Shown here one piece after another: positions 7,601 to 52,179 of a DNA stretch of 58,423 bases (the first letter of the stretch is position 1; the number at the start of each line of letters is the position of its first letter). Below the pieces are notes generated by a model. It made no database searches and was not told where the DNA came from. It saw only the letters and a list, made by a program, of their open reading frames with translations. The stretch is from a virus (Duplodnaviria; Caudoviricetes). Made by a program: the position numbers and the translations under genes. Where the stretch lies: IMG/VR virus record IMGVR_UViG_3300023174_000191, positions 1-58,423 of that record; one strand, written 5' to 3'.

Positions 7601-8153
7601 CATCACCTTGAGTTTGTGACTTATTCGTAGCTGGATATGCAGCAGAAAAATTGTAATATGAAATTTCTTTATGTGAGCCTGTCGAGCTAGTTAAAGTTAC
7701 TCTAGGAAGTGAACTGAATATAATAGCATCTTCATTTCGTTTTGAAATATCAATATATACAGGAACTTGCCATCTTACATTTATTTCAGACGGATCTAAT
7801 ATTTGGCCTTCTGCAGATTGATTTAACGTACTACAAATTATTATACTTCCATTTCCAGGAGTAGTATCTTCATTTATAAATATAGTAACAATTGCCGGCT
7901 GATCTTGTGATTCTAAATCGATTCCTACTTCATAATAAACAGGTAATCCATTTGCATCTAATATTTCTATATAGACAGCAGAGTTTTCAGGAAATAAAGA
8001 TACATTTCCTTTAAATTTAAAAGTATTTAAACCAGCAGTTAATTCTGTAGGAAGTTCAGTTACTCTAAAATAATCTGGAGAGTTTGCTGATGTATCTTCT
8101 ATTATAACATTAAGCTCGCTAAGACCTTGATATATAACTTCGTTTTTAGCCAT
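4659..8153 (-). CDS. Large tail/baseplate-associated protein with C-terminal C1q-like domain
   Basis: C-terminal PAFRV...YNQGNYYNNTNGTFTAPVAGLYSVF...VYLAVNDTL matches the gC1q pattern. Confidence 0.7.
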   Translation of the reverse strand: MAKNEVIYQGLSELNVIIEDTSANSPDYFRVTELPTELTAGLNTFKFKGNVSLFPENSAVYIEILDANGLPVYYEVGIDLESQDQPAIVTIFINEDTTPGNGSIIICSTLNQSAEGQILDPSEINVRWQVPVYIDISKRNEDAIIFSSLPRVTLTSSTGSHKEISYYNFSAAYPATNKSQTQGDGYTTNGANYIKYYYNNDTPVIILPANLSISSYDNGAPIYGFLSHIENATISFTYSRIVNSDPTRPSNIVSQTVSASISSYSGSLIAYLSEPLSYALSNSNDRFYPKSLDLNRMDISYVMPTEPDAYGYVFSNTTQNTYNIITASFTNLSPLTGEIAKIRTYYRSSGINEYILLNETDITSYADEFGFNTSSLQNTFSLPTSHRNEKIDFKFEFVNPAGNASKQVIEVRDNTLQGGNTYIGGDDNLMTGSLYVAGATGTGVHLSGKGNASMIRSIGYSGFKNATTVSGGSPVGFAGFVIYSGSIKPLLTAVNSPLGSSEEYSGVGIELVANPTSYFKYTTSGSGLLDIRTKNFFLGDPAASYISGSGTIFQISSSNFSISPQGNVYVKGNINATEGLFENIIISGVTPQSQISGSSVITRYLIEPWFTSSAVIDTVNSIAVGAQDLSVKPQTTMSFGLSRWRGEGTDYTSGKTIFVYGNPVAATYKAGSGSFDNLSYKIKSIPQDFEKLGDIKQSYEIPEYQDKITFGSNKTTVDHLIMPVGSDASTFSLTSDNFHISSSILSKANANFKPLVLQFAAKFGNLNGFKDYSSEFSGQLRLWVYIYDENDNELYREFKVQNSFFEWIDVNIPLTPVLTYKESSDGSFNVYSKFKIKLEWQQRTAVSDGSEVTHIRFSELKIVQLAESEGLKTKILQFKDSALLGGTAGTLSYGSFSPISDNLYDLGIYNESWDTSKNFKWRNIYTSNINTGIITSSYQSTYAINSSTINNGYQNTNLGAYNIICGTYLSGSNSQLVVGTYNRYSTLQNSFIIGNGTSNTSRSNLVFTSGSTFQVTGSLRVSGSITVSSGSVTMPNRPAFRVSGSSSTDRTAITVLSGSMVGVDYNQGNYYNNTNGTFTAPVAGLYSVFLNARCGSVNAMQQIIVYRNSATSVLMWESSTNTGPQHFGVSGIVYLAVNDTLKAQVQVGSIQFDLNNSWGAAYIG

Positions 8154-40827: not shown

Positions 40828-40870
40828 AATTTTTAATTTTTAAATTTTTATTATTTCTAATTTCTATATA

Positions 40871-40904
40871 TAAAGATAAGGATAATATTTCTTATGTCCT
40901 AATC
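40871..40904 (-). promoter_or_regulatory. Putative early promoter GATTAGGA-N16-CTTATCTTTA
   Basis: Exact two-box consensus. Confidence 0.7.
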
Positions 40905-40913
40905 TTTTTCAAT

Positions 40914-41120
40914 TTATTTTTCAACAATTCCTAAAATTCTTTCTCGGTAAATTCTAGTCAATTCTGCTTCCTCAACTTCTACATCGGTATTAGGATACAG
41001 GTTAATTAACGTTTTCACAAAATGAATTCGATTTTCTGCCATTTCAGGATTGAAACTCATTTCAAAAGCGGCATCACTTAAATGACTTTGGATAGCGATT
41101 GATAATCTTAATGTTCTCAT
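40914..41120 (-). CDS. Hypothetical protein
   Basis: Small ORF with its own promoter motif. Confidence 0.6.
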   Translation of the reverse strand: MRTLRLSIAIQSHLSDAAFEMSFNPEMAENRIHFVKTLINLYPNTDVEVEEAELTRIYRERILGIVEK

Positions 41121-41148
41121 AAATTGTCTATTTTTTAATTTCTATACA

Positions 41149-41182
41149 TAAAGATAAGGATAATTTAATTAACGTCCTAATC
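41149..41182 (-). promoter_or_regulatory. Putative early promoter GATTAGGA-N16-CTTATCTTTA
   Basis: Exact two-box consensus. Confidence 0.7.
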
Positions 41183-41240
41183 ATTTCCAAAGTATTTTTC
41201 AGTAGAAATGCACTGAATTTCTTCAATGCATTTTACTTAT

Positions 41241-41663: not shown

Positions 41664-42575
41664 CTATTTTATTGTTTTAAGAAACTCATCCACTACTGGT
41701 TGGAATCTAGGAGCAACGTCTATTTTAAGAGCCACTGCTGCTTCAATTCTTTCTTGGCGTTTAGCCTCAAATTCTTGAGTTTCTTTTCTTACGAAAGCTG
41801 ACCATTCTTCATTTAGCTTTTTATATTCATCACGTAAAATTTGGTTAGCTTCATTTGCTTTTGCCACTGCATCTCCATTTTCATTTGCAATTCGAGCATT
41901 TTCTTTAGTCACAGCATTTTTTACTTTCGACTTGAAGTAATTTACTTTTTGCTCATATTCTCTATGAGTATTTGCTAACTCTTCATGTATTGAAAGCAAT
42001 TGAGCGGAAGTGTGATGAACTGCTACTTTCATAGGAGTTTTCTTTCCTGTTTCAATTTCCATGAATTCCAAAGTTTTAATTTTTGGCAATTCTGTTCTTA
42101 AACGATCTAAAGTTCCTCCTTTATGGATAAACTGACCGATGTGCGCTGCATAAGCCTCTGCTTCTAAAAATTCATTATATTCAGCAGCTGATAATTCATT
42201 CCAAGCCCACTCTTCAGAAACAAGTTCTTTTAATTCAACTTCAACATACTCTGGAGATTCTGGTCTAGGTTCTGAAGGATAATATTGCTCTTTTTGAATA
42301 GACTTAATCAAAGAATCTTTCGCTTTGATATTTTCCATTAAAAATGCTTGAGTAGCAGCAAGTCTTGCTTTTTCTTGAATTAACTCAGCTACATTACCTG
42401 GTAAAGGTTTTGCTGGAGTTTCAATATAAGTGTCAGAACCGATTGTCAACGTCTTTTCAACGTTATTAACATCAGACAATGTATTAGACAATTCGATAGA
42501 TCTCTGATTACACAAATTAGAGATTGATTGTGCTTGAGACAAAGATAACCCTTTAGTAGATAATGAATTTTTCAT
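41664..42575 (-). CDS. Uncharacterised long alpha-helical/coiled-coil protein (303 aa)
   Basis: Glu/Ala/Lys-rich helical sequence; sits inside the tRNA region immediately upstream of the putative ncRNA. Confidence 0.85.
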   Translation of the reverse strand: MKNSLSTKGLSLSQAQSISNLCNQRSIELSNTLSDVNNVEKTLTIGSDTYIETPAKPLPGNVAELIQEKARLAATQAFLMENIKAKDSLIKSIQKEQYYPSEPRPESPEYVEVELKELVSEEWAWNELSAAEYNEFLEAEAYAAHIGQFIHKGGTLDRLRTELPKIKTLEFMEIETGKKTPMKVAVHHTSAQLLSIHEELANTHREYEQKVNYFKSKVKNAVTKENARIANENGDAVAKANEANQILRDEYKKLNEEWSAFVRKETQEFEAKRQERIEAAVALKIDVAPRFQPVVDEFLKTIK

Positions 42576-42609
42576 AATAGATAATATTTAGTATTTGTTA
42601 ATAAATTAG

Positions 42610-42681
42610 TGGAGCTACCGAGATTCGAACTCGGAATAACAGAGTGCAAGTCTATCGTGATGCCAATTTCACTATAACCCC
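42610..42681 (-). tRNA. tRNA-Ala(TGC)
   Basis: Cloverleaf, G3:U70, loop CTTGCAC. Confidence 0.9.
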
Positions 42682-42686
42682 TTTTG

Positions 42687-42758
42687 TACTGCCACGGAGA
42701 ATCGAACTCCGATTTTATGGATGAAAACCATAGGTCCTGACCGTTAGACGATGGCAGC
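42687..42758 (-). tRNA. tRNA-Glu(TTC)
   Basis: TATGG-TTTTCAT-CCATA. Confidence 0.9.
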
Positions 42759-42764
42759 AATTTG

Positions 42765-42852
42765 AGGAAGATGTGGGATTCGAACCCACGGAGGATTTGA
42801 CCCCTCTCCGGTTTTCAAGACCGGTGCAATAGACCAACTCTGCCAACCTTCC
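42765..42852 (-). tRNA. tRNA-Ser(TGA)
   Basis: CCGGT-CTTGAAA-ACCGG, long variable arm. Confidence 0.92.
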
Positions 42853-42861
42853 CTTTTAATT

Positions 42862-42901
42862 CTTCATAAATATAAGATAACCTTTTGGAGTATCCTAATC
42901 T
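42862..42901 (-). repeat. 40-bp exact direct repeat (other copy at 48385-48424), promoter-like
   Basis: cttcataaatataagataaccttttggagtatcctaatct is identical at both sites. Confidence 0.85.
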
Positions 42902-43821
42902 AAATTATAAATAGTTTCACATTCAGCGAATAATTTTTCATATCGTGCGTCAAATTCTCCTAACTGATTTAACGAATTTACTACCACGTCTAATACTAGA
43001 GTTCTAGTAAATTTATTATCATAATATTTTTTCAGCCCCCAAGAATGTTTTATAGCATTTGCTATTTGTGCCGTTTCTATATTACTATCTAAAGGCGGAA
43101 CCCATTCTATTCCATTTGAATCAATATCTCCTCCAATATGAGGTTGATATACTGATTTTAGAATTTCGCTTTTTGTTAAATTTAAATCATCTATTAGCAC
43201 AGGCAATAACCTTTGTTCTATAAACATTGTACTGCAATCTTCATTAACAAAATTAAATTGTTTTGAATGAGTTTGTTCAATTATCTTACTTGAAATTTCA
43301 AACCATTTTGTAATCAATTCTTTAAAATTAGAATTAAAGCATACTATAGCACAATTTACTGGGTTTATATTCCAATTATAATTTACATCGTCAATCCAAT
43401 TAATTGGATCTGGATATACATTAAAAGGATCATATTCGGCAATAGCTTCTTGATGATAAAATACAAAATCAGTTTCATTACTAATTAAATTAGGCTCTGA
43501 AATCCATAGATCAGTATCAAATATACAAAATCTAGTTTCTTCACGAGCTAATTTATTAGCTAAATATATTTTACAAAAACTCCAAAATTTATTTGAGTAT
43601 TCTTTATATGGATTAGTTTCTAAAAACTGAGTATTTATTTCGTCATACTCTTCATCTAATCCATATTTGCTAATAGAATCTAAATATCTTTGATTGCAAT
43701 ATAATTTAACTGACCCGTAATTCTTTTTCCAAAATTTAATAGAAGCTAATTGAACTAAATAATTTATAGCTTCAAACTCGCCATCATCTTTTGTTTGATA
43801 ATAAACATGATATCCTGTCAT
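42895..43821 (-). CDS. Putative nucleotide-diphospho-sugar transferase-like protein (DUF6734-like)
   Basis: S...W...YG.V.LY, FW...K.Y, F.IFD.D (DxD), NCAIV, F.EQRLL, H.WG.K. Confidence 0.55.
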   Translation of the reverse strand: MTGYHVYYQTKDDGEFEAINYLVQLASIKFWKKNYGSVKLYCNQRYLDSISKYGLDEEYDEINTQFLETNPYKEYSNKFWSFCKIYLANKLAREETRFCIFDTDLWISEPNLISNETDFVFYHQEAIAEYDPFNVYPDPINWIDDVNYNWNINPVNCAIVCFNSNFKELITKWFEISSKIIEQTHSKQFNFVNEDCSTMFIEQRLLPVLIDDLNLTKSEILKSVYQPHIGGDIDSNGIEWVPPLDSNIETAQIANAIKHSWGLKKYYDNKFTRTLVLDVVVNSLNQLGEFDARYEKLFAECETIYNLD

Positions 43822-43836
43822 AACTTATTTATTTTG

Positions 43837-43907
43837 AGGCGCGAGCTGGATTCGAACCAGCATAACAGATTTTGCAGACCTGAACCTAACCATTCAGTCA
43901 TCACGCC
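43837..43907 (-). tRNA. tRNA-Cys(GCA)
   Basis: CAGGT-CTGCAAA-ATCTG, U73. Confidence 0.9.
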
Positions 43908-43914
43908 ATTATTG

Positions 43915-43986
43915 AACTCCTAATAGGACTCGAACCTATATCATCTGGTCCGTAGCCAAACGTTTTTCCAATTAAACTATAAGAGC
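43915..43986 (-). tRNA. tRNA-Arg(ACG)
   Basis: TTTGG-CTACGGA-CCAGA. Confidence 0.88.
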
Positions 43987-44001
43987 ATTTTTTTAATAGT
44001 T

Positions 44002-44169
44002 TTAAATAATTTTTTCGGTTCCATTATTTTCTCTTATGTTAAAATGAAATCCAAATATTCTAATTTGAAAACCTTTTATGTAAGTATACTTTTTAAAATA
44101 AAACACCCACCATCCAATTTTTTTAATTGGGAACCATCTCGTACCTATGTACGTAACATCGATTTTCAT
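44002..44169 (-). CDS. Small aromatic-rich hypothetical protein (likely start MKIDVTY)
   Basis: Fills the gap between two tRNAs; the longer start in the ORF track overlaps tRNA-Leu. Confidence 0.45.
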   Translation of the reverse strand: MKIDVTYIGTRWFPIKKIGWWVFYFKKYTYIKGFQIRIFGFHFNIRENNGTEKII

Positions 44170-44187
44170 ACTTTTATTTTTAATTTG

Positions 44188-44261
44188 TACCCAAGGCGAG
44201 ACTCGAACTCGCAAAATCTAGATCCTAAGTCTAGCGCCTATACCAATTCGGCTACTCGGGC
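44188..44261 (-). tRNA. tRNA-Leu(TAG) with short variable loop
   Basis: CTAGA-CTTAGGA-TCTAG; Leu-type D arm. Confidence 0.85.
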
Positions 44262-44268
44262 AATTTCG

Positions 44269-44340
44269 TACCCCATCCAGGAATCGAACCTAGAACTAAT
44301 CTTTAGAAGAGATTTGTTATATCCGTTTAACTAATAGGGC
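44269..44340 (-). tRNA. tRNA-Arg(TCT)
   Basis: AATCT-CTTCTAA-AGATT. Confidence 0.9.
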
Positions 44341-44344
44341 ATAG

Positions 44345-44429
44345 AGGAAAGAAGAGGTATCGAACCCCATGCCAATTAAGGCACGATTTGCTTAGCAAGC
44401 AATCTTGATCCCTGATCAATTTACTTTCC
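44345..44429 (-). tRNA. tRNA-Ser(GCT), atypical D arm
   Basis: TTGC-TTGCTAA-GCAA, long variable arm, D hairpin TTGAT-CAGGG-ATCAA. Confidence 0.8.
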
Positions 44430-44435
44430 AATTTG

Positions 44436-44520
44436 TACACCTGGCCGGACTCGAACCGGCACCCCCCTTACGGAGGATTGGATTTTAAGTCCAACGTGTC
44501 TACCATTCCACCACAGGTGC
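44436..44520 (-). tRNA. tRNA-Leu(TAA)
   Basis: TTGGA-CTTAAAA-TCCAA, long variable arm. Confidence 0.93.
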
Positions 44521-44526
44521 ATTAAG

Positions 44527-44600
44527 TGTGAAAGATGGGACTCGAACCCACAATCGCCTGAACCACAATCAGGTGCTTTACCAATTCAGCTACAATCACC
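44527..44600 (-). tRNA. tRNA-His(GTG)
   Basis: CCTGA-TTGTGGT-TCAGG, extra 5' G. Confidence 0.88.
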
Positions 44601-44610
44601 ATGTATCTTG

Positions 44611-44682
44611 TTGGGTTACTAGGATTCGAACCTAGACTAAAACAGTCAAAGTGTTTTGTGCTAACCGTTACACTATAACCCA
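44611..44682 (-). tRNA. tRNA-Gln(TTG)
   Basis: AAACA-CTTTGAC-TGTTT. Confidence 0.9.
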
Positions 44683-44689
44683 AAATTTG

Positions 44690-44757
44690 TACCGAGTAAT
44701 GGTATCGAGCCATTCTAGAAATAGATATGAGCCATCTCCGGTCCCTGACCACTCGGC
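44690..44757 (-). tRNA. Atypical tRNA(CAT) with minimal D arm
   Basis: Acceptor GCCGAGT/ACTCGGT, D hairpin GGTC-AGG-GACC, GATGG-CTCATAT-CTATT, T loop CTCGATA. Confidence 0.65.
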
Positions 44758-44767
44758 AATTAAATTG

Positions 44768-44840
44768 TGGGAACTGCAGGAATCGAACCTGCTCCTTTAG
44801 TTCTTCAGACTAACGCGCGCACCAGCTACGCCAAGTTCCC
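44768..44840 (-). tRNA. tRNA-Phe(GAA)
   Basis: TTAGT-CTGAAGA-ACTAA. Confidence 0.9.
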
Positions 44841-44992
44841 AATGCCTGGCTCGAAACCAGGCTTCTCATATAAAGGCATTTACATTTTTACTCAGCTTCC
44901 TTCGTTATCCATGACACAGCACATTGCTATCTGGCATGGAAAGTCAAATGCCTCAAAAACAAACACATAAAGAAAAAGTTCAAAACCATTTG

Positions 44993-45064
44993 CGGTCTAT
45001 TCGGGATTCGAACCCGAGTCTTCTACGTGACAGGCAGACATCCATACCCCTGGACCAATAGACC
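44993..45064 (-). tRNA. tRNA-Asp(GTC) copy 1
   Basis: TCTGC-CTGTCAC-GTAGA. Confidence 0.9.
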
Positions 45065-45072
45065 AATTTTTG

Positions 45073-45146
45073 TGTCCTATACAGGATTTGAACCTGTGAC
45101 CTTCTCGTTATGAGCGAGCTGCTCTGACCAGCTGAGCTAAAAGGAC
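45073..45146 (-). tRNA. tRNA(CAT), Met or Ile2
   Basis: CTCG-CTCATAA-CGAG, canonical D and T arms. Confidence 0.85.
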
Positions 45147-45152
45147 ATTTTG

Positions 45153-45223
45153 TACCTCGTAGTGGAATCGAACCACTGCCCTTTGCATGTAAAACAAATA
45201 CGCTTCCATTACGCCAACGAGGC
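45153..45223 (-). tRNA. tRNA-Val(TAC)
   Basis: TTTGT-TTTACAT-GCAAA. Confidence 0.88.
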
Positions 45224-45288
45224 AAATCTAATTCTATGCGTCGGTGCTTATTAAGCGGTGATCTATGAATTAGTAACAGTCTTATTCG

Positions 45289-45359
45289 TACCCCCTGAAG
45301 GTAATGCTCCTTCTTCCCGATATTAAAAGTATCGTGCTTCACTTTAAAGCCTAGAGGGC
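45289..45359 (-). tRNA. tRNA-Lys(TTT) with non-canonical T loop
   Basis: CGATA-CTTTTAA-TATCG; T arm GAAGG-AGCATTA-CCTTC. Confidence 0.7.
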
Positions 45360-45365
45360 TAATAG

Positions 45366-45441
45366 TCTGATAGGCAGGATTCGAACCTGCGTGCTCCTAC
45401 GTCCAAGGTAGGCTAGATAAACCGGACTCCTATACTACCAG
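45366..45441 (-). tRNA. tRNA-Pro(TGG)
   Basis: CCTAC-CTTGGAC-GTAGG. Confidence 0.88.
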
Positions 45442-45452
45442 AAGTATATTTG

Positions 45453-45526
45453 TAGTGATAATAGGACTCGAACCTATATCCTCCTCGGTATCAGCGAGGT
45501 GCTCCAACCAATTGAGCTATACCACT
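45453..45526 (-). tRNA. tRNA-Ile(GAT)
   Basis: CCTCG-CTGATAC-CGAGG. Confidence 0.9.
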
Positions 45527-45532
45527 ATATTG

Positions 45533-45606
45533 AGCCGAGGACAGGACTCGAACCGACGTCTTTGGCTTATGAGACCAAGCTGGGACCATCTCCAGTCTAA
45601 CTCGCG
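45533..45606 (-). tRNA. tRNA(CAT), Met or Ile2, imperfect acceptor stem
   Basis: TTGGT-CTCATAA-GCCAA; GGTTCGAGTCC. Confidence 0.75.
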
Positions 45607-45612
45607 ATATTG

Positions 45613-45684
45613 CGGTCTATTCGGGATTCGAACCCGAGTCTTCTACGTGACAGGCAGGCATCCATTCCCCTGGACCAATAGACC
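45613..45684 (-). tRNA. tRNA-Asp(GTC) copy 2
   Basis: Differs from copy 1 at two positions. Confidence 0.9.
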
Positions 45685-45690
45685 TTATTG

Positions 45691-45762
45691 TGGAGCTATG
45701 GAGAATCGAACTCCAATTTATGAATTGCAAATCCATTGTAATAGCCGTTATACTATAACCCC
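45691..45762 (-). tRNA. tRNA-Ala(TGC)
   Basis: G3:U70, ATGGA-TTTGCAA-TTCAT. Confidence 0.88.
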
Positions 45763-45766
45763 AATT

Positions 45767-45892
45767 AAATTAAATAAATAAGTCTTCGTCTCTCCTAGCT
45801 GGCCCACTTGAAGATTACTCTTCGTGCCCGACTCGAACGGGAATGCTAGCGACTCAATCCAGCTTGCCCATAAATGGGTATTTATTTAATTT
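45767..45892 (-). ncRNA. Putative tRNA-mimic/Y-RNA-like element
   Basis: 14-bp terminal inverted repeat, internal AGCTGG/CCAGCT helix, T arm CCCG-TTCGAGT-CGGG, GAAGA-GTAA-TCTTC hairpin. Confidence 0.5.
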
Positions 45893-45894
45893 TG

Positions 45895-45966
45895 TACTAC
45901 CGAGGAGAATCGAACTCCCGTTTCAACAGTGAAAGTGTTGTGTCCTAGCCGTTAGACGACGGTAGC
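45895..45966 (-). tRNA. tRNA-Glu(TTC)
   Basis: CAACA-CTTTCAC-TGTTG. Confidence 0.9.
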
Positions 45967-45973
45967 AAATTTG

Positions 45974-46045
45974 AGCGAGTAGACGGAATCGAACCGACAT
46001 CATCTGGTTGGAAGCCAGAGATAATAACCGTTATACGATACTCGC
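45974..46045 (-). tRNA. tRNA-Gly(TCC)
   Basis: TCTGG-CTTCCAA-CCAGA. Confidence 0.9.
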
Positions 46046-46054
46046 AAATTAAAG

Positions 46055-46126
46055 AGCCTCTACAAGGAATCGAACCCTGTTATCTTGTGTACAAAACAAG
46101 TGCATCACCATTTATGCTTTAGAGGC
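46055..46126 (-). tRNA. tRNA-Thr(TGT)
   Basis: CTTGT-TTTGTAC-ACAAG. Confidence 0.88.
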
Positions 46127-46206
46127 CATTTAAACTACAAGCGGTTCTCGTATCCGTTCTGCAGGTTAGCCCCTGCTGCTTTGCAATAAGCTAATTCCAA
46201 TTAATT

Positions 46207-46713
46207 TTAAAAGAATAGAAAGGTCTCCCACTCTTTTGGTATGTAAGTCATAGATCTCATTAACATTAAATAGTGAGGTCTTTTTGGCTCTGGAATTTCC
46301 TTACCGTACTCCTCCAATGTTAAATCTGCCTTTTCATGATTACATGGACGACAAGCGGTAACTAAATTATCCCAAGCGTCTTTTCCTCCTTTTGATTGAG
46401 GTATAACATGATCTAATGTCAATAGTTTTTGATTTGAACTACCGCAATACACACATTCATAATTGTCTCTTTTATAAACGTTTTCTCTTGTTAAAGGAAC
46501 TCTATTAATATGCTGTTTAACATATTTAGCAACTCTAATAATAGAAGGTTTGTATATAATTAATTCAGGATTAATTAAGCTAAACGTTTCTGGATGGTCA
46601 GCTATCACTTCGGCATTGCCTTTATAACAAATTACAAACGCTCTTTCTGTGCTTATAACTGACCTCGCAGTAAAACTTGCATCTACTACAAGTGCTTTTT
46701 GATACTTACTCAT
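46207..46713 (-). CDS. HNH endonuclease (McrA-like) within the tRNA array
   Basis: RD.Y.C.YCG...LTLDHVIP.S.GG...W.NLVTAC..CN..K. Confidence 0.92.
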   Translation of the reverse strand: MSKYQKALVVDASFTARSVISTERAFVICYKGNAEVIADHPETFSLINPELIIYKPSIIRVAKYVKQHINRVPLTRENVYKRDNYECVYCGSSNQKLLTLDHVIPQSKGGKDAWDNLVTACRPCNHEKADLTLEEYGKEIPEPKRPHYLMLMRSMTYIPKEWETFLFF

Positions 46714-46745
46714 CGCTTACTAATTTATATTATTATACTTATTTG

Positions 46746-46816
46746 CACGCCAGGAAGGATTCGAACCTTCATCATCGGTTTTGGAGACCGGTATGCTACC
46801 ATTGCACCACTGACGC
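46746..46816 (-). tRNA. tRNA-Trp(CCA)
   Basis: CGGT-CTCCAAA-ACCG. Confidence 0.9.
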
Positions 46817-46822
46817 ATTTTG

Positions 46823-46894
46823 AGGGCTGGGAGAATTTCGAAATCTCGACCCGCTGCCTAACAAACAGCCGCTCTGCCTCTGAGCTACCAACCC
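46823..46894 (-). tRNA. tRNA-Asn(GTT)
   Basis: GCTGT-TTGTTAG-GCAGC. Confidence 0.85.
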
Positions 46895-46906
46895 AATTAA
46901 TATTTG

Positions 46907-46987
46907 TGGGATACTGTGGAATCGAACCACACCTTCTTACAGAACGATTTTACAGACCGCTTATCACACCAGTGACTGAAGCATCCC
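46907..46987 (-). tRNA. tRNA-Tyr(GTA)
   Basis: GCGGT-CTGTAAA-ATCGT, variable arm. Confidence 0.88.
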
Positions 46988-47135
46988 AATTTTGACTACT
47001 ACCTGACTCCTTTCGAACTTTGCAGGCTCGTATCATTCATTCTTAGTAGTCCAAGGCGTTACGCGTCCATCTAGTAACTTTAATTTTCTTGAGTCCGGAT
47101 AAGCGCTTATCAACTCTAGGACATTACCTTGTTTG

Positions 47136-47209
47136 AGCGGTGCAAGGGATTCGAACCCTTACCTCGAGTTTGGAAGACTCATATGCTAACCGTTAAACAC
47201 CAGCACCGC
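47136..47209 (-). tRNA. tRNA-Gly(TCC)
   Basis: TGAGT-CTTCCAA-ACTCG. Confidence 0.9.
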
Positions 47210-47224
47210 AAATTAATTTAGCCA

Positions 47225-47240
47225 ATATGTCAATGAACTC
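47225..47240 (-). promoter_or_regulatory. boxA-like antitermination element before the first tRNA
   Basis: GAGTTCATTGACATAT resembles rrn boxA (GxTCTTTxACA). Confidence 0.5.
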
Positions 47241-47440
47241 ATTATATCAAATTAGCCTCAATTTCTTGAGTTTCCAACATCGCCACGTGGAGGCTTTGAT
47301 ATGATGTCGCTGAGTGTCGTTGCTACTCTATATTGCCTGGCCAGACTATATTTCACCATTCTCGTTTATTTTAATTCGGTAACCCCTACTACCCGCCTGG
47401 TACCACGAATATAAAAATATCTTTTTCTAATTTCTATACA

Positions 47441-47474
47441 TAAAGATAAGTAATTAATTTGAAAGTACCAAATC
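47441..47474 (-). promoter_or_regulatory. Putative early promoter of the tRNA operon
   Basis: GATTTGGT-N16-CTTATCTTTA. Confidence 0.7.
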
Positions 47475-47513
47475 TTTTTTAAGAAATTTTAATTTATTTT
47501 TATGACCAGGTCA

Positions 47514-47547
47514 ATAAAAAAGCCCCGGATTTTATGGTCCGAGGCTT
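47514..47547 (-). terminator. Intrinsic terminator (candidate attenuator)
   Basis: AAGCCTCGGA-ccataaaa-TCCGGGGCTT followed by a U-run. Confidence 0.85.
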
Positions 47548-47576
47548 AAATTATAGTAATATGTAAATTACCTATA

Positions 47577-47723
47577 TCATACCTCAGTCCCTCCTTTTTT
47601 CGGTTCCCATGTAATACTATCATTACGTAAAGAGCCTAAAATCACATCATTATTACATATCGTAGCTCCTGCTCCTTGAAGCATTCTAAACGATTGTGAT
47701 TGATATGTATGGACTTGTTTCAT
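47577..47723 (-). CDS. 48-aa candidate leader peptide MKQVHTYQSQSFRMLQGAGATICNNDVILGSLRNDSITWEPKKGGTEV
   Basis: Manual translation; ATG 18 nt downstream of the late-promoter motif at 47741-47749; stop about 30 nt before the terminator. Confidence 0.6.
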   Translation of the reverse strand: MKQVHTYQSQSFRMLQGAGATICNNDVILGSLRNDSITWEPKKGGTEV

Positions 47724-47782
47724 TTTATTTTTTATTTAATATAAATATGCACCTAGCTATATTTTCAGGCGATTTTTTTATA

Positions 47783-50059: not shown

Positions 50060-50085
50060 ACGTCTTATTATTTAATTTCTATACA

Positions 50086-50119
50086 TAAAGATAAGAATAT
50101 ATTATGTAGAAACCTAATC
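50086..50119 (-). promoter_or_regulatory. Putative early promoter
   Basis: GATTAGGT-N16-CTTATCTTTA. Confidence 0.7.
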
Positions 50120-50123
50120 TTTT

Positions 50124-50612
50124 TTAAAGTATTTTATCTAAACTTTTACCTATTAAATTATAAGATGCTTTTTGACTATGCGGGTCTCCATATCCGATAG
50201 GAACTTCTATTATTTCAGCTCCTTGAGTTCGAAATTTCTGTAAATAATATCTATACACAGTTGTTCTAGATATTGATCTTACTCCGCCCCAGCCCCATGA
50301 ACCTTGCACTACATAAAATTTAGCGTTTGGAAATTTACGTTTAAGTGCTAGAAATAATTGCACTACATTACCTTGAAATCTATCATTAGTACCAATACTA
50401 ATCACTACATTTTTTATAGAAGGAGTAATTGGATAGTTATTAACCATTTTAGTTAATTCAGATGCGCCAATGCCGCCTTTCCATAAACCAGGAGCTCGTT
50501 CAGCTTTATGAGTCTGTGTATCAATATACGGTACCTGAGAGTCTCCAATGATAATGTTTTGTGAAAATACTGACATTGACACTAACATTAATATAAAATA
50601 GATTATTCTCAT
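50124..50612 (-). CDS. Secreted SGNH/GDSL-like hydrolase
   Basis: Signal peptide, IIGDSQ, VVISIGTND, C-terminal GDPH. Confidence 0.65.
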   Translation of the reverse strand: MRIIYFILMLVSMSVFSQNIIIGDSQVPYIDTQTHKAERAPGLWKGGIGASELTKMVNNYPITPSIKNVVISIGTNDRFQGNVVQLFLALKRKFPNAKFYVVQGSWGWGGVRSISRTTVYRYYLQKFRTQGAEIIEVPIGYGDPHSQKASYNLIGKSLDKIL

Positions 50613-50784: not shown

Positions 50785-50892
50785 TAGTCAGGACAGGAAT
50801 CGAACCTGTATGTTAATACCAAAGCTCCACGATATTAACCATTGCTTTATAGGAACTTTCTAATTAGCGTCTACCAATTCCGCCACCTGACT
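50785..50892 (-). ncRNA. tRNA-Leu-like element lacking a proper anticodon arm
   Basis: Intact acceptor AGTCAGG/CCTGACT, D arm GGCGGAATTGGTAGACGC and T arm; centre unpaired apart from a 9-bp extra arm. Confidence 0.7.
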
Positions 50893-51532
50893 ATTTTTCG
50901 TCTCTAGAATGTCTTTCTCTAGAATCTCTATTACTTAATAATTCTAAAACTTCATCTATATGGTAAGGTCTAAATTCAGAAGAACCGCACATTCCAACAT
51001 CCATTCTTCTGCCTTCTCCAAATCTAGCATCGCCTTTCAAATGCTGATGACCATGTAACATAAATGCTCCTCTTGGCATATTGTTCCAAGATACAATTGG
51101 GTAATGACAAAGAACAAATTTGTACTTTTCAGTACCGGTTTTTGCTTCTAGAGTCACATCTAGTTCCTCATAGTGAGCAACATGAGTGAAATGTTTTCTG
51201 ACATTGTCTTTGTTTTTTTCAATGTGATGATCGTGATTTCCTAAAATCAATACAATGTTTTTACATTTGATTTGAGAACGAAAAACTTCAATATTTTCAA
51301 TTCCTCCAAAAGAAAAATCTCCAAGGTGTATTAACCAATCATTTTCTCCAACACAATTATTAATGTTATCAACAATGTGTGCATTCATTGTTTCGAGGTC
51401 TGGAAAATTACGAGTAGCCTTAATAAACTCTTCTTCATCTCCTGTGTTCCATTTAGAAACTCCTCTACAAATATTGGTATGTCCAAAATGGGAATCGGAT
51501 GTAAACCAAATATTTTTTGCTACTATTTTCAT
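50891..51532 (-). CDS. Calcineurin-like metallophosphoesterase
   Basis: FTSDSHFGH, HLGDF, LGNHD, HYP, HGHQH, DVG. Confidence 0.92.
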   Translation of the reverse strand: MKIVAKNIWFTSDSHFGHTNICRGVSKWNTGDEEEFIKATRNFPDLETMNAHIVDNINNCVGENDWLIHLGDFSFGGIENIEVFRSQIKCKNIVLILGNHDHHIEKNKDNVRKHFTHVAHYEELDVTLEAKTGTEKYKFVLCHYPIVSWNNMPRGAFMLHGHQHLKGDARFGEGRRMDVGMCGSSEFRPYHIDEVLELLSNRDSRERHSRDEK

Positions 51533-51551
51533 ATATCTTATTATTAATACT

Positions 51552-51585
51552 TAAAGATAAGATATATTTTTATAATATCCTAATC
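51552..51585 (-). promoter_or_regulatory. Putative early promoter
   Basis: GATTAGGA-N16-CTTATCTTTA. Confidence 0.7.
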
Positions 51586-52179
51586 TTATTTAAGAAATTT
51601 TAGTATTTTTTCTTTTACTCCTTGCTGCTTGATTCCTTCAGTGGATGATGGAGTAAGTACAAAATTTGTTACTCCCCAAACTCTAGTAGATGGCACTGAA
51701 AAATCCAATACTTCAACAGCCATATTCAAATCATCTACTGCTACCCAATGAGTAATTTCGGGATGGTCTTTTACGAATTGTGCAATTTCCAAACTGCGCT
51801 CTTGCTCGTATTGTAAAGGTCTAAACCATTCAAATCCTTCAGGTTTATCACACCCGATAAAGGAAGGAGTAAATGCAATAGGACGTTTGATGATTCCTTG
51901 AGATTCGTAATAATCTCCTAGCTCCTCTAGGTTTGCATGCTTCTTCCAATCGGACGATACTACAATTTCAGCTCCTGTTTCTTCTAATATAGAATTTAGA
52001 ACTTTAACTGCTTTTTTATCAAAGTTGTCAAATCGAACATCTATAGGAGCAGACTTATACATTCTGTCCCACTCTGGGTTTGCTTTGTGATATTTTTGCA
52101 TTTTCTTACTTCTACCTCCCCAATTGTTGGAAAGGCAAATTACTCCGTCGTTGTCTAAAAATATTACTTTCATTACCAA
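51586..52179 (-). CDS. HAD-family phosphatase (Swiss Army Knife RNA-repair type)
   Basis: KVIFLDNDGV, IVVSSDW, R..EI, WVAVDD. Confidence 0.85.
   Translation of the reverse strand: MVMKVIFLDNDGVICLSNNWGGRSKKMQKYHKANPEWDRMYKSAPIDVRFDNFDKKAVKVLNSILEETGAEIVVSSDWKKHANLEELGDYYESQGIIKRPIAFTPSFIGCDKPEGFEWFRPLQYEQERSLEIAQFVKDHPEITHWVAVDDLNMAVEVLDFSVPSTRVWGVTNFVLTPSSTEGIKQQGVKEKILKFLK

Follow-up and report, generated by a model that had tools for sequence, protein, structure and literature searches.

A candidate translation-sensing attenuator, with a leader peptide of all 20 amino acids, upstream of a phage tRNA array

The stretch of DNA considered here, which we call the window, is a 58-kb fragment of a virus record (IMGVR_UViG_3300023174_000191; 58,423 nucleotides (nt), ~34% complete according to CheckV). 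Its long open reading frames (ORFs) all lie on the minus strand, as does every window feature described below, and their start codons stand without Shine-Dalgarno sequences in an A/T-rich context. An array of 25 transfer RNA (tRNA) genes occupies positions 42609–47209, as called by ARAGORN with concordant results from Rfam. On its 5′ side lies a compact cassette made up of a promoter-like motif, a short ORF that encodes all 20 amino acids and a terminator-like hairpin, and it is this cassette, a candidate ribosome-mediated attenuator for which the tRNA genes are the presumed regulated genes, that is the subject of our analysis. An earlier reading of the window made without database searches (the sequence-only reading) had described the array as a complete tRNA operon. 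That description holds in part: the 25 tRNAs detected by ARAGORN represent 19 amino acids, but lysine was undetected, and completeness would need atypical tRNAs. In a megablast comparison with named phages the leader region had no match, and the ligase had distant matches only.

The leader ORF (47577–47723) consists of 48 codons followed by UGA. It had not been called as a gene, and the sequence-only reading was correct about both its position and its content: all 20 amino acids are encoded, with Trp, Cys, His, Tyr, Phe and Pro each present in a single copy. Twelve nt 5′ of its ATG is a promoter-like 14-mer, ATATTTATATTAAA (47735–47748). The 9-mer first singled out as a late-promoter motif at 47741–47749, CATATTTAT, is indeed present but is not itself enriched in the window (3 occurrences versus 3.08 expected), whereas the overlapping 14-mer, which contains most of it, has five matches at ≤1 mismatch versus 0.71 expected, a count reached in 0/100 shuffles. 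All five matches are on the gene strand, 7–19 nt 5′ of ATGs at 8153, 14525, 22525, 30105 and 47723, and PHROGs gave a name to none of the ORFs that follow them. A related motif, TATATATTTATA, occupies the corresponding position in 36 of 37 aligned relatives, the exception being locus L119.

The cassette is conserved well beyond the window. Five larger genomes (G001–G005) from the same group of phages, which are large and come from fresh water, chosen through a phosphoribosyltransferase-like gene and not through the ORF, carry a TATATATTTATA motif, an ORF of 46–51 codons, a UGA within UAUGAUAUA, a spacer of ~30 nt and a strong terminator, and their peptides, ~28–30% identical to that of the window, are clearly homologous to it. 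An alignment search of viral contigs led to 40 loci (individual loci are given L numbers), and a profile search of 1.84 billion representative proteins added 21 short members to the family and yielded no other convincing match; the family now includes 65 unique peptides. The cassette lies directly 5′ of a tRNA array in all five of the larger genomes and in 44 of 44 full-length loci, with the first tRNA on the same strand and 83–866 nt after the leader stop in every one of the 44. On the other side, the 250 nt preceding the cassette fall into 20 unrelated sequence clusters; since upstream neighbors differ while the array stays, the cassette travels with the array. Of 69 loci reached via the neighboring gene, 66 had neither downstream tRNAs nor a homologue of the ORF there, because the array lies elsewhere in those genomes.

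Comparison among these loci indicates that the leader ORF is translated. Measured from the family ATG it is 44–51 codons long in the 44 full-length loci and keeps its frame throughout; the positions of the ATG and the stop are fixed in the alignment, and the stop is UGA in 43 of 44. The length of the ORF is divisible by three in 38 of 38 aligned sequences, as are 11 of the 13 gap runs within it (the other two arose when the aligner divided a single 9-nt gap); in the spacer and terminator this is true of only 3 gap runs out of 21. It is because the net insertions and deletions are all multiples of three that we conclude, from the alignment, that the frame is read by ribosomes. Variability over the ORF as a whole is equal across the three codon positions, and the alignment contains long nucleotide-invariant stretches. 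Among the closest relatives, the ORF has undergone ~12 nonsynonymous and 4 synonymous changes spread evenly over codon positions, a ratio of ~3:1 as for neutral change, while the neighboring phosphoribosyltransferase-like gene shows the usual third-position excess in the same phages. The last 5–6 residues are hypervariable as amino acids (TKTGI, GGTEV, DTDLG, GKTGV and others), and they are followed by the nearly invariant UAUGAUAUA, which spans the stop at 47573–47581 in the window and at the same site in relatives. The leader UGA also overlaps an AUG, from which a frame of two codons runs to a stop (AUG AUA UAA/UAG). The peptide could be assigned to neither a Pfam nor a PHROGs family, and AlphaFold2 produced no confident fold for it (mean predicted local distance difference test score, pLDDT, 48; predicted template modeling score, pTM, 0.14).

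The presence of every amino acid, which the sequence-only reading had noticed in a single leader, is kept across the family. The full set of 20 is found in 42 of 44 loci and, when each unique family peptide is counted once, in 57 of 65, against a baseline of 3 complete sequences among 294 other ATG-initiated ORFs of 44–54 amino acids (1%) in all the DNA analyzed. Among representatives of <70% identity, 19 of 26 are complete versus 5.5 ± 1.8 in a null obtained by shuffling columns (maximum 13 in 5000). Because this null falls short of the observed 19, completeness is not merely inherited along with conserved residues. The rare residues are held close to one copy per peptide (means of 1.02 for Cys, 1.05 for His, 1.08 for Trp, 1.08 for Tyr and 1.14 for Pro), and they move. 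Of 46 cases in which Cys, Glu, His, Pro, Arg, Trp or Tyr does not occupy its main column, 39 have the residue at another position, whereas a second copy accompanies an occupied main column in only 27 of 136 (Fisher 3.6e-15, uncorrected for phylogeny). His occupies 10 columns in all and Trp 8, and such a number of distinct new positions for rare residues shows repeated independent events. That these residues re-appear elsewhere when lost shows, as judged from the aligned peptides, that completeness itself is under selection, and apart from decoding we are aware of nothing that would require a peptide to include every amino acid. The significance of this feature, like that of the helix described below, comes from the relatives, and the window alone provides weak evidence: a random 48-residue peptide of window composition is complete with P ~1.1%, as are 69 of 13,403 real 48-residue windows and 2 of 71 small ORFs in the window.

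The window leader uses 21 of the 21 anticodons that ARAGORN assigns to its array. Two candidate rules connecting leader and array were rejected: use of every array tRNA species as a defining property of the leader fails in clade A, where Arg-ACG is never used, and in L135, and the proposition that an amino acid missing from the leader has no tRNA in the array fails for L129 (Cys) and L044 (Pro).

After a 30-nt spacer, the leader stop of the window is followed by an intrinsic terminator, located where the sequence-only reading had recognized a strong one. The hairpin (47547–47520) has a 10-bp stem and an 8-nt loop, has a predicted energy of ~−16 kcal/mol and leads into a U-rich tail that is evident in the sequence (47510–47519); it is the sole strong minus-strand terminator-like site between positions 42000 and 52000. 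Folds and alignment define its 5′ arm (region 3, 47536–47547), which is common to both helices, and its 3′ arm (region 4, 47520–47529). The 5′ strand of the antiterminator, region 2 (47581–47590), was defined by folds and relatives and coincides with the last codons of the ORF, GGG ACU GAG GUA. As had been proposed at the outset, GGACUGAGGU (47590–47581) pairs with GCCUCGGACC (47545–47536), through 2 bp, an A·A mismatch and 7 bp, including two G·U pairs. Folding also places a small spacer hairpin, GGUAAU/AUUACU (47555–47572), inside the antiterminator loop; a G·U pair of this hairpin is replaced by A-U in L083. Before the 3′ arm exists, the 2:3 helix together with the inner hairpin is the minimum-energy fold of the window leader (−17.4 kcal/mol). 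The 2:3 duplex by itself has an energy of −14.1 kcal/mol, which is equalled by 5.9% of ORF shuffles. The nearest relatives taken alone (L007, L008, L044, L083 and L084) were uninformative, both helices being invariant in them and the ORF too similar.

Across the wider family both structures persist. The terminator starts 27–37 nt 3′ of the stop in the 44 loci, so that the position of the stop is conserved along with that of the hairpin. A strict finder recovered the terminator in 41 of 44; L105 and L112 have longer loops and L110 has lost the 3′ arm. Six of its pairs show compensatory changes across 38 sequences, and in the subset of sequences that share one register, 100% of cells are paired and two pairs are compensatory. 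In the same subset the 2:3 helix has 87.5% of its cells paired, with the unpaired cells coming mostly from one sequence in a shifted register; one pair has changed on both sides (C-G to U-A) and two have changed via wobble. Regions 2 and 3 differ among sequence classes and remain complementary within each (ACCGGG/CCCGG, GAUUUGGG/CCCAAAUC, GAUCUGGG/CCCGGAUC, GGUACC/GGUACC, GAUCGGAGU/ACUCGGAUC and GGACUGAGGU/GCCUCGGACC), with at least one fully compensatory pair, which is included in the difference between GAUUUGGG/CCCAAAUC and GAUCUGGG/CCCGGAUC. The mean duplex energy is −10.6 kcal/mol for cognate combinations and −8.5 kcal/mol for non-cognate ones (0/5000 permutations), and −4.7 ± 2.5 kcal/mol when region 2 is shuffled. 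The complementarity is also specific to position. Region 2 is the best partner for region 3 across the whole leader in 31 of 35 unique sequences, and the mean duplex profile has a sharp minimum of −10.6 at 12 nt before the stop, with values of −1 to −4.6 elsewhere. By these comparisons, the antiterminator is conserved in place and not in sequence. When region 4 is omitted, at least five region 2–3 pairs form in 35 of 35 local folds and in 31 of 35 folds of the whole leader. With mean energies of −14.4 kcal/mol for the 2:3 fold and −14.6 kcal/mol for the terminator hairpin, the two alternatives are nearly equal in stability, as expected of a balanced switch.

Given this anatomy, we regard it as probable that the cassette is a ribosome-mediated transcription attenuator whose pan-amino-acid leader senses any tRNA shortage. 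Transcripts from the promoter-like motif, or from further upstream, would carry the 44–51-codon ORF, and its last three to four codons (region 2) would be able to pair with the 5′ arm of the terminator (region 3). A ribosome close behind the polymerase would reach the stop and cover region 2, upon which the 3:4 terminator would form and a short leader RNA would be released. A ribosome delayed at any codon, whether because an aminoacyl-tRNA is scarce or cleaved or because translation is inhibited, would leave region 2 free when region 3 emerges; the 2:3 helix would then form and transcription would continue into the tRNA array. The spacing suits such a scheme, since a ribosome at the stop would cover the last codons but not a 5′ arm 27–37 nt away, so that prompt translation should favor the terminator and delay should favor read-through. 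With one or a few codons per amino acid, the leader would gauge the whole tRNA pool, and since each amino acid is present, in most cases as a single copy, the leader would sense a severe lack of any one charged tRNA. The severe shortages we have in mind are those that tRNA-cleaving defenses or host tRNA decay would produce. Masking by the ribosome, its coupling to the polymerase, the direction of the response and the identity of the tRNA genes as the regulated output are what we infer from the conserved anatomy. The general tRNA-pool sensor envisaged in the sequence-only reading is nonetheless backed by every comparative test run, and none refuted it. The resemblance to trp and his attenuators that accompanied the proposal is partial: the translated leader, the terminator and the mutually exclusive antiterminator correspond, but a codon cluster and a 1:2 helix do not. 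Our estimate is evenly balanced on the stronger form of the idea, a universal "tRNA-pool gauge" in which the depletion or cleavage of any single tRNA, for example by host anticodon nucleases or during late-infection decay of host tRNAs, would cause a stall, open the terminator and boost the phage's replacement tRNA set.

Several observations count against an attenuator of this kind. Whole-leader folds were inspected for an anti-antiterminator (1:2) helix and none was found, region 2 still pairing with region 3 in 31 of 35; an untranslated leader, or one under a full block of translation, is therefore predicted to read through, unlike that of trp. The leader contains no regulatory codon runs, the rare amino acids occurring about once each, so that sensitivity to mild starvation is probably low. 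A promoter-like element stands between the terminator and the tRNAs, 20–60 nt after the terminator, in the window and in most relatives; the array is consequently not dependent on read-through, and the switch can only add to its transcription. The upstream motif is promoter-like by its recurrence and placement, and its role as a promoter, late or otherwise, is putative. The mechanism further presupposes that transcription and translation are coupled in the host. Other objections concern the peptide and the statistics. Eight of 65 peptides are incomplete (seven without one amino acid and one without two). Three blocks, QNIHQ, WSDSLC and GFTYNNEPKQ, vary at third codon positions only, which suggests that the peptide itself, or those codons, are constrained beyond mere presence. 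Leader and array do not correspond one-to-one in content: CGN codons are absent from clade A leaders though every one of their arrays has tRNA-Arg(ACG), and the L129 leader is without Cys though that phage has a tRNA-Cys gene. The loci were found through peptide similarity, which biases the sample toward intact frames; the completeness and relocation statistics ignore shared ancestry; and the covariation of the 2:3 helix amounts to few independent events and is likewise uncorrected for phylogeny.

Not all loci have the intervening promoter. In L007, L008 and L044 no promoter lies between, the first tRNA begins 25–30 nt after the terminator and the array is reachable only through it. The ORF is covered by contigs assembled from RNA libraries (runs X15, X16, X17 and X19), some of which extend across the terminator; these contigs give no information on ends, strand or level, and may derive from DNA. 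One of them, from X15, connects the terminator region with tRNA-Gly in an insert-less form, and shows presence only.

The most serious competing explanation is that the cassette is a typical small protein gene of the phage, equipped with a promoter and a terminator, which merely adjoins the array and whose terminator insulates the array promoter. Self-contained cassettes of the "moron" type consist of a promoter, one ORF and a terminator, and the leader has the terminator and, upstream, a recurrent motif that also precedes four large window ORFs and may be a promoter. The conserved frame, the three blocks with third-position-only variation and the promoter 3′ of the terminator in most loci count in favor of this explanation. 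It would leave unexplained, however, why rare amino acids are kept at about one copy and re-appear when lost, why hypervariable last codons stay complementary to the 5′ arm, and why the cassette remains next to the array whatever lies upstream of it; nor does the peptide have a known family or a confident fold. We consider this explanation unlikely.

A second possibility is a translation-sensing switch with an output other than tRNA supply, which would act by interference with the downstream promoter or on the 3′ end or stability of the leader mRNA. The anatomy would be the same as for the attenuator, and a promoter 20–60 nt after the terminator, as in most loci, is placed where read-through could hinder initiation. 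Yet in L007, L008 and L044 there is no promoter to interfere with and a tRNA is directly next, and interference would cut tRNA synthesis just when translation falters, which makes little biological sense; such a switch seems quite improbable to us. A non-coding structured RNA, either a small RNA or a protein-binding leader in which the open frame is incidental, would accommodate the long nucleotide-invariant stretches, the fold of the window copy (z = −2.65), the equal variability of the three codon positions and the neutral-like ~3:1 ratio of the closest clade, but it is hardly credible given that net indels are multiples of three in the ORF and not in the spacer, that the ATG and stop positions are fixed, that amino-acid completeness would be meaningless, that no Rfam family except the tRNAs covers the region and that RNAalifold finds little conserved structure within the ORF.

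Between the putative attenuator and the first tRNA are several other elements. The separate promoter that the sequence-only reading had placed 3′ of the terminator, at 47441–47474, falls within a 65-nt promoter-like repeat (47428–47491) that has the invariant core CTTATCTTTA and four further intergenic copies in the window, at 50073–50136, 41121–41186, 51547–51611 and 40854–40920; the copy at the array is a candidate independent array promoter, and elements related to the repeat occur after the terminator of the leader in many relatives. The ~180-nt stretch after this repeat houses a candidate HDV (hepatitis delta virus)-like self-cleaving ribozyme (47245–47308; also L083, 3493–3557). Scored against the full Rfam model RF02682, the candidate reaches 32.5 bits (E = 0.00018 for a 321-nt stretch), short of the gathering score of 44. 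By eye it has a 7-bp P1 that opens with a G·U pair at G47308, a P2 of UAUCAAA/UUUGAUA, a P3 of GCC/GGC, a P4 hairpin and a GGCUAA junction; it is absent from L007 and L044. HDV-like "theta" ribozymes adjoining phage tRNAs have been described (PMC10879173). Just 5′ of the predicted cleavage site is an apparently structured RNA of ~100–120 nt (47309–47412; L083, 3372–3492) that includes a hairpin with a conserved GGG(U/C)AGUAGG loop. The window and L083 copies differ by three fully compensatory pairs, and neither ARAGORN nor Rfam calls a tRNA at 47309–47412. Immediately 5′ of the first tRNA is a conserved box, GAGTTCATTGACATATTGG (47222–47240), with a single copy in the window; 31 other loci also have it, one copy per locus and directly before the first tRNA, and it might be a processing or promoter signal.

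This interval has acquired different contents in relatives. In L094, L099, L100, L101, L107, L117 and L121, an element of ~125 nt, closed by an acceptor-like 7-bp stem and containing two T-arm-like hairpins (GGTTCGA), lies between the array promoter and the first tRNA; it is not called by ARAGORN and does not occur in the window. L087 (692–1255), and also L092 and L096, carry a 187-amino-acid ORF (MIGIYKITNP...GRVYIGQS), by its motif presumably a GIY-YIG homing endonuclease, inserted between the terminator/promoter and the array, and insertions of the L087 type move the first tRNA 770–870 nt from the leader stop. Within the window array itself is an ORF for an HNH endonuclease (46207–46713; Pfam HNH_5, 8.7e-16), with homologues within the arrays of G002 and G003. 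Just 5′ of the G001 cassette, a 113-nt match to the tRNA model (38.5 bits; L085, 1234–1346, corresponding to G001, 89033–89145) is possibly an intron-bearing or atypical tRNA, and G004 has a similar 113-nt match. At 50891–51532 and 51586–52179, a few kb 5′ of the window array, are encoded a calcineurin-like phosphoesterase and a "Swiss Army Knife" HAD domain, a type associated with RNA repair (Pfam PF18143, 1.4e-20); the pair fits a theme of tRNA repair or replacement.

Why phages carry large sets of tRNAs, and how these are deployed, is an open question. Phage tRNAs have been tied to escape from tRNA-targeting defenses in recent work (PMC10264068, PMC11555353). If the proposed mechanism is true, a sensor would couple transcription of the array to the whole tRNA pool, so that the tRNA set is used on demand, and the cassette would represent the first all-amino-acid attenuator, the first known case of a viral tRNA array under regulation and the first known peptide selected for compositional completeness. 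Attenuation would thereby be extended from the sensing of one amino acid to that of 20, and a peptide selected to contain "one of each amino acid" illustrates a kind of sequence constraint that, to our knowledge, is undescribed. As a cis-element of ~230 nt the cassette makes clear mutational predictions, and it could serve as a compact reporter of translational stress. Neither a leader ORF in front of phage tRNA genes nor an all-amino-acid leader is described in the literature searched, from which most subscription journals were absent.

The classical attenuators of amino-acid operons (trp, his, leu, thr, pheA and ilv) combine a leader peptide with a terminator and a mutually exclusive antiterminator. 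The phage cassette shares with them a short translated leader, an intrinsic terminator, an antiterminator whose 5′ strand is at the end of the ORF, and a stop ~30–37 nt before the 5′ arm of the terminator. It differs in that its leader contains all 20 amino acids, with about one codon for each rare one and no run of a single amino acid, and in being phage-encoded, in preceding tRNAs in place of biosynthetic genes and in having no anti-antiterminator. Closest in concept are the inhibitor-responsive ribosome-mediated attenuators (bmrB-bmrCD, vmlR and lmo0919), in which slowing of the ribosome anywhere favors the antiterminator; their leader ORFs have no amino-acid specificity and act as general sensors of translation, but the genes they control are bacterial efflux or ABC-F resistance genes. 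Selection for amino-acid completeness in that group was not reported in the literature searched. T-box riboswitches resemble the cassette in governing genes of the translation apparatus through terminator/antiterminator control by the state of tRNA, and are distinguished by binding one specific uncharged tRNA directly, with no need for translation; a match to a T-box or any other Rfam leader was sought between 42000 and 49000 and did not appear at E up to 1. On the side of the regulated genes, a comparison is offered by the long tRNA array of Anabaena sp. PCC 7120, which is induced when translation is impaired and aids survival (PMC8421152). That array is cellular, and the terms "attenuat", "leader peptide" and "terminator" are absent from the main text of the report, which thus describes no leader-ORF mechanism, but it resembles the system proposed here in its central property, as a supernumerary tRNA array that is switched on by impaired translation.

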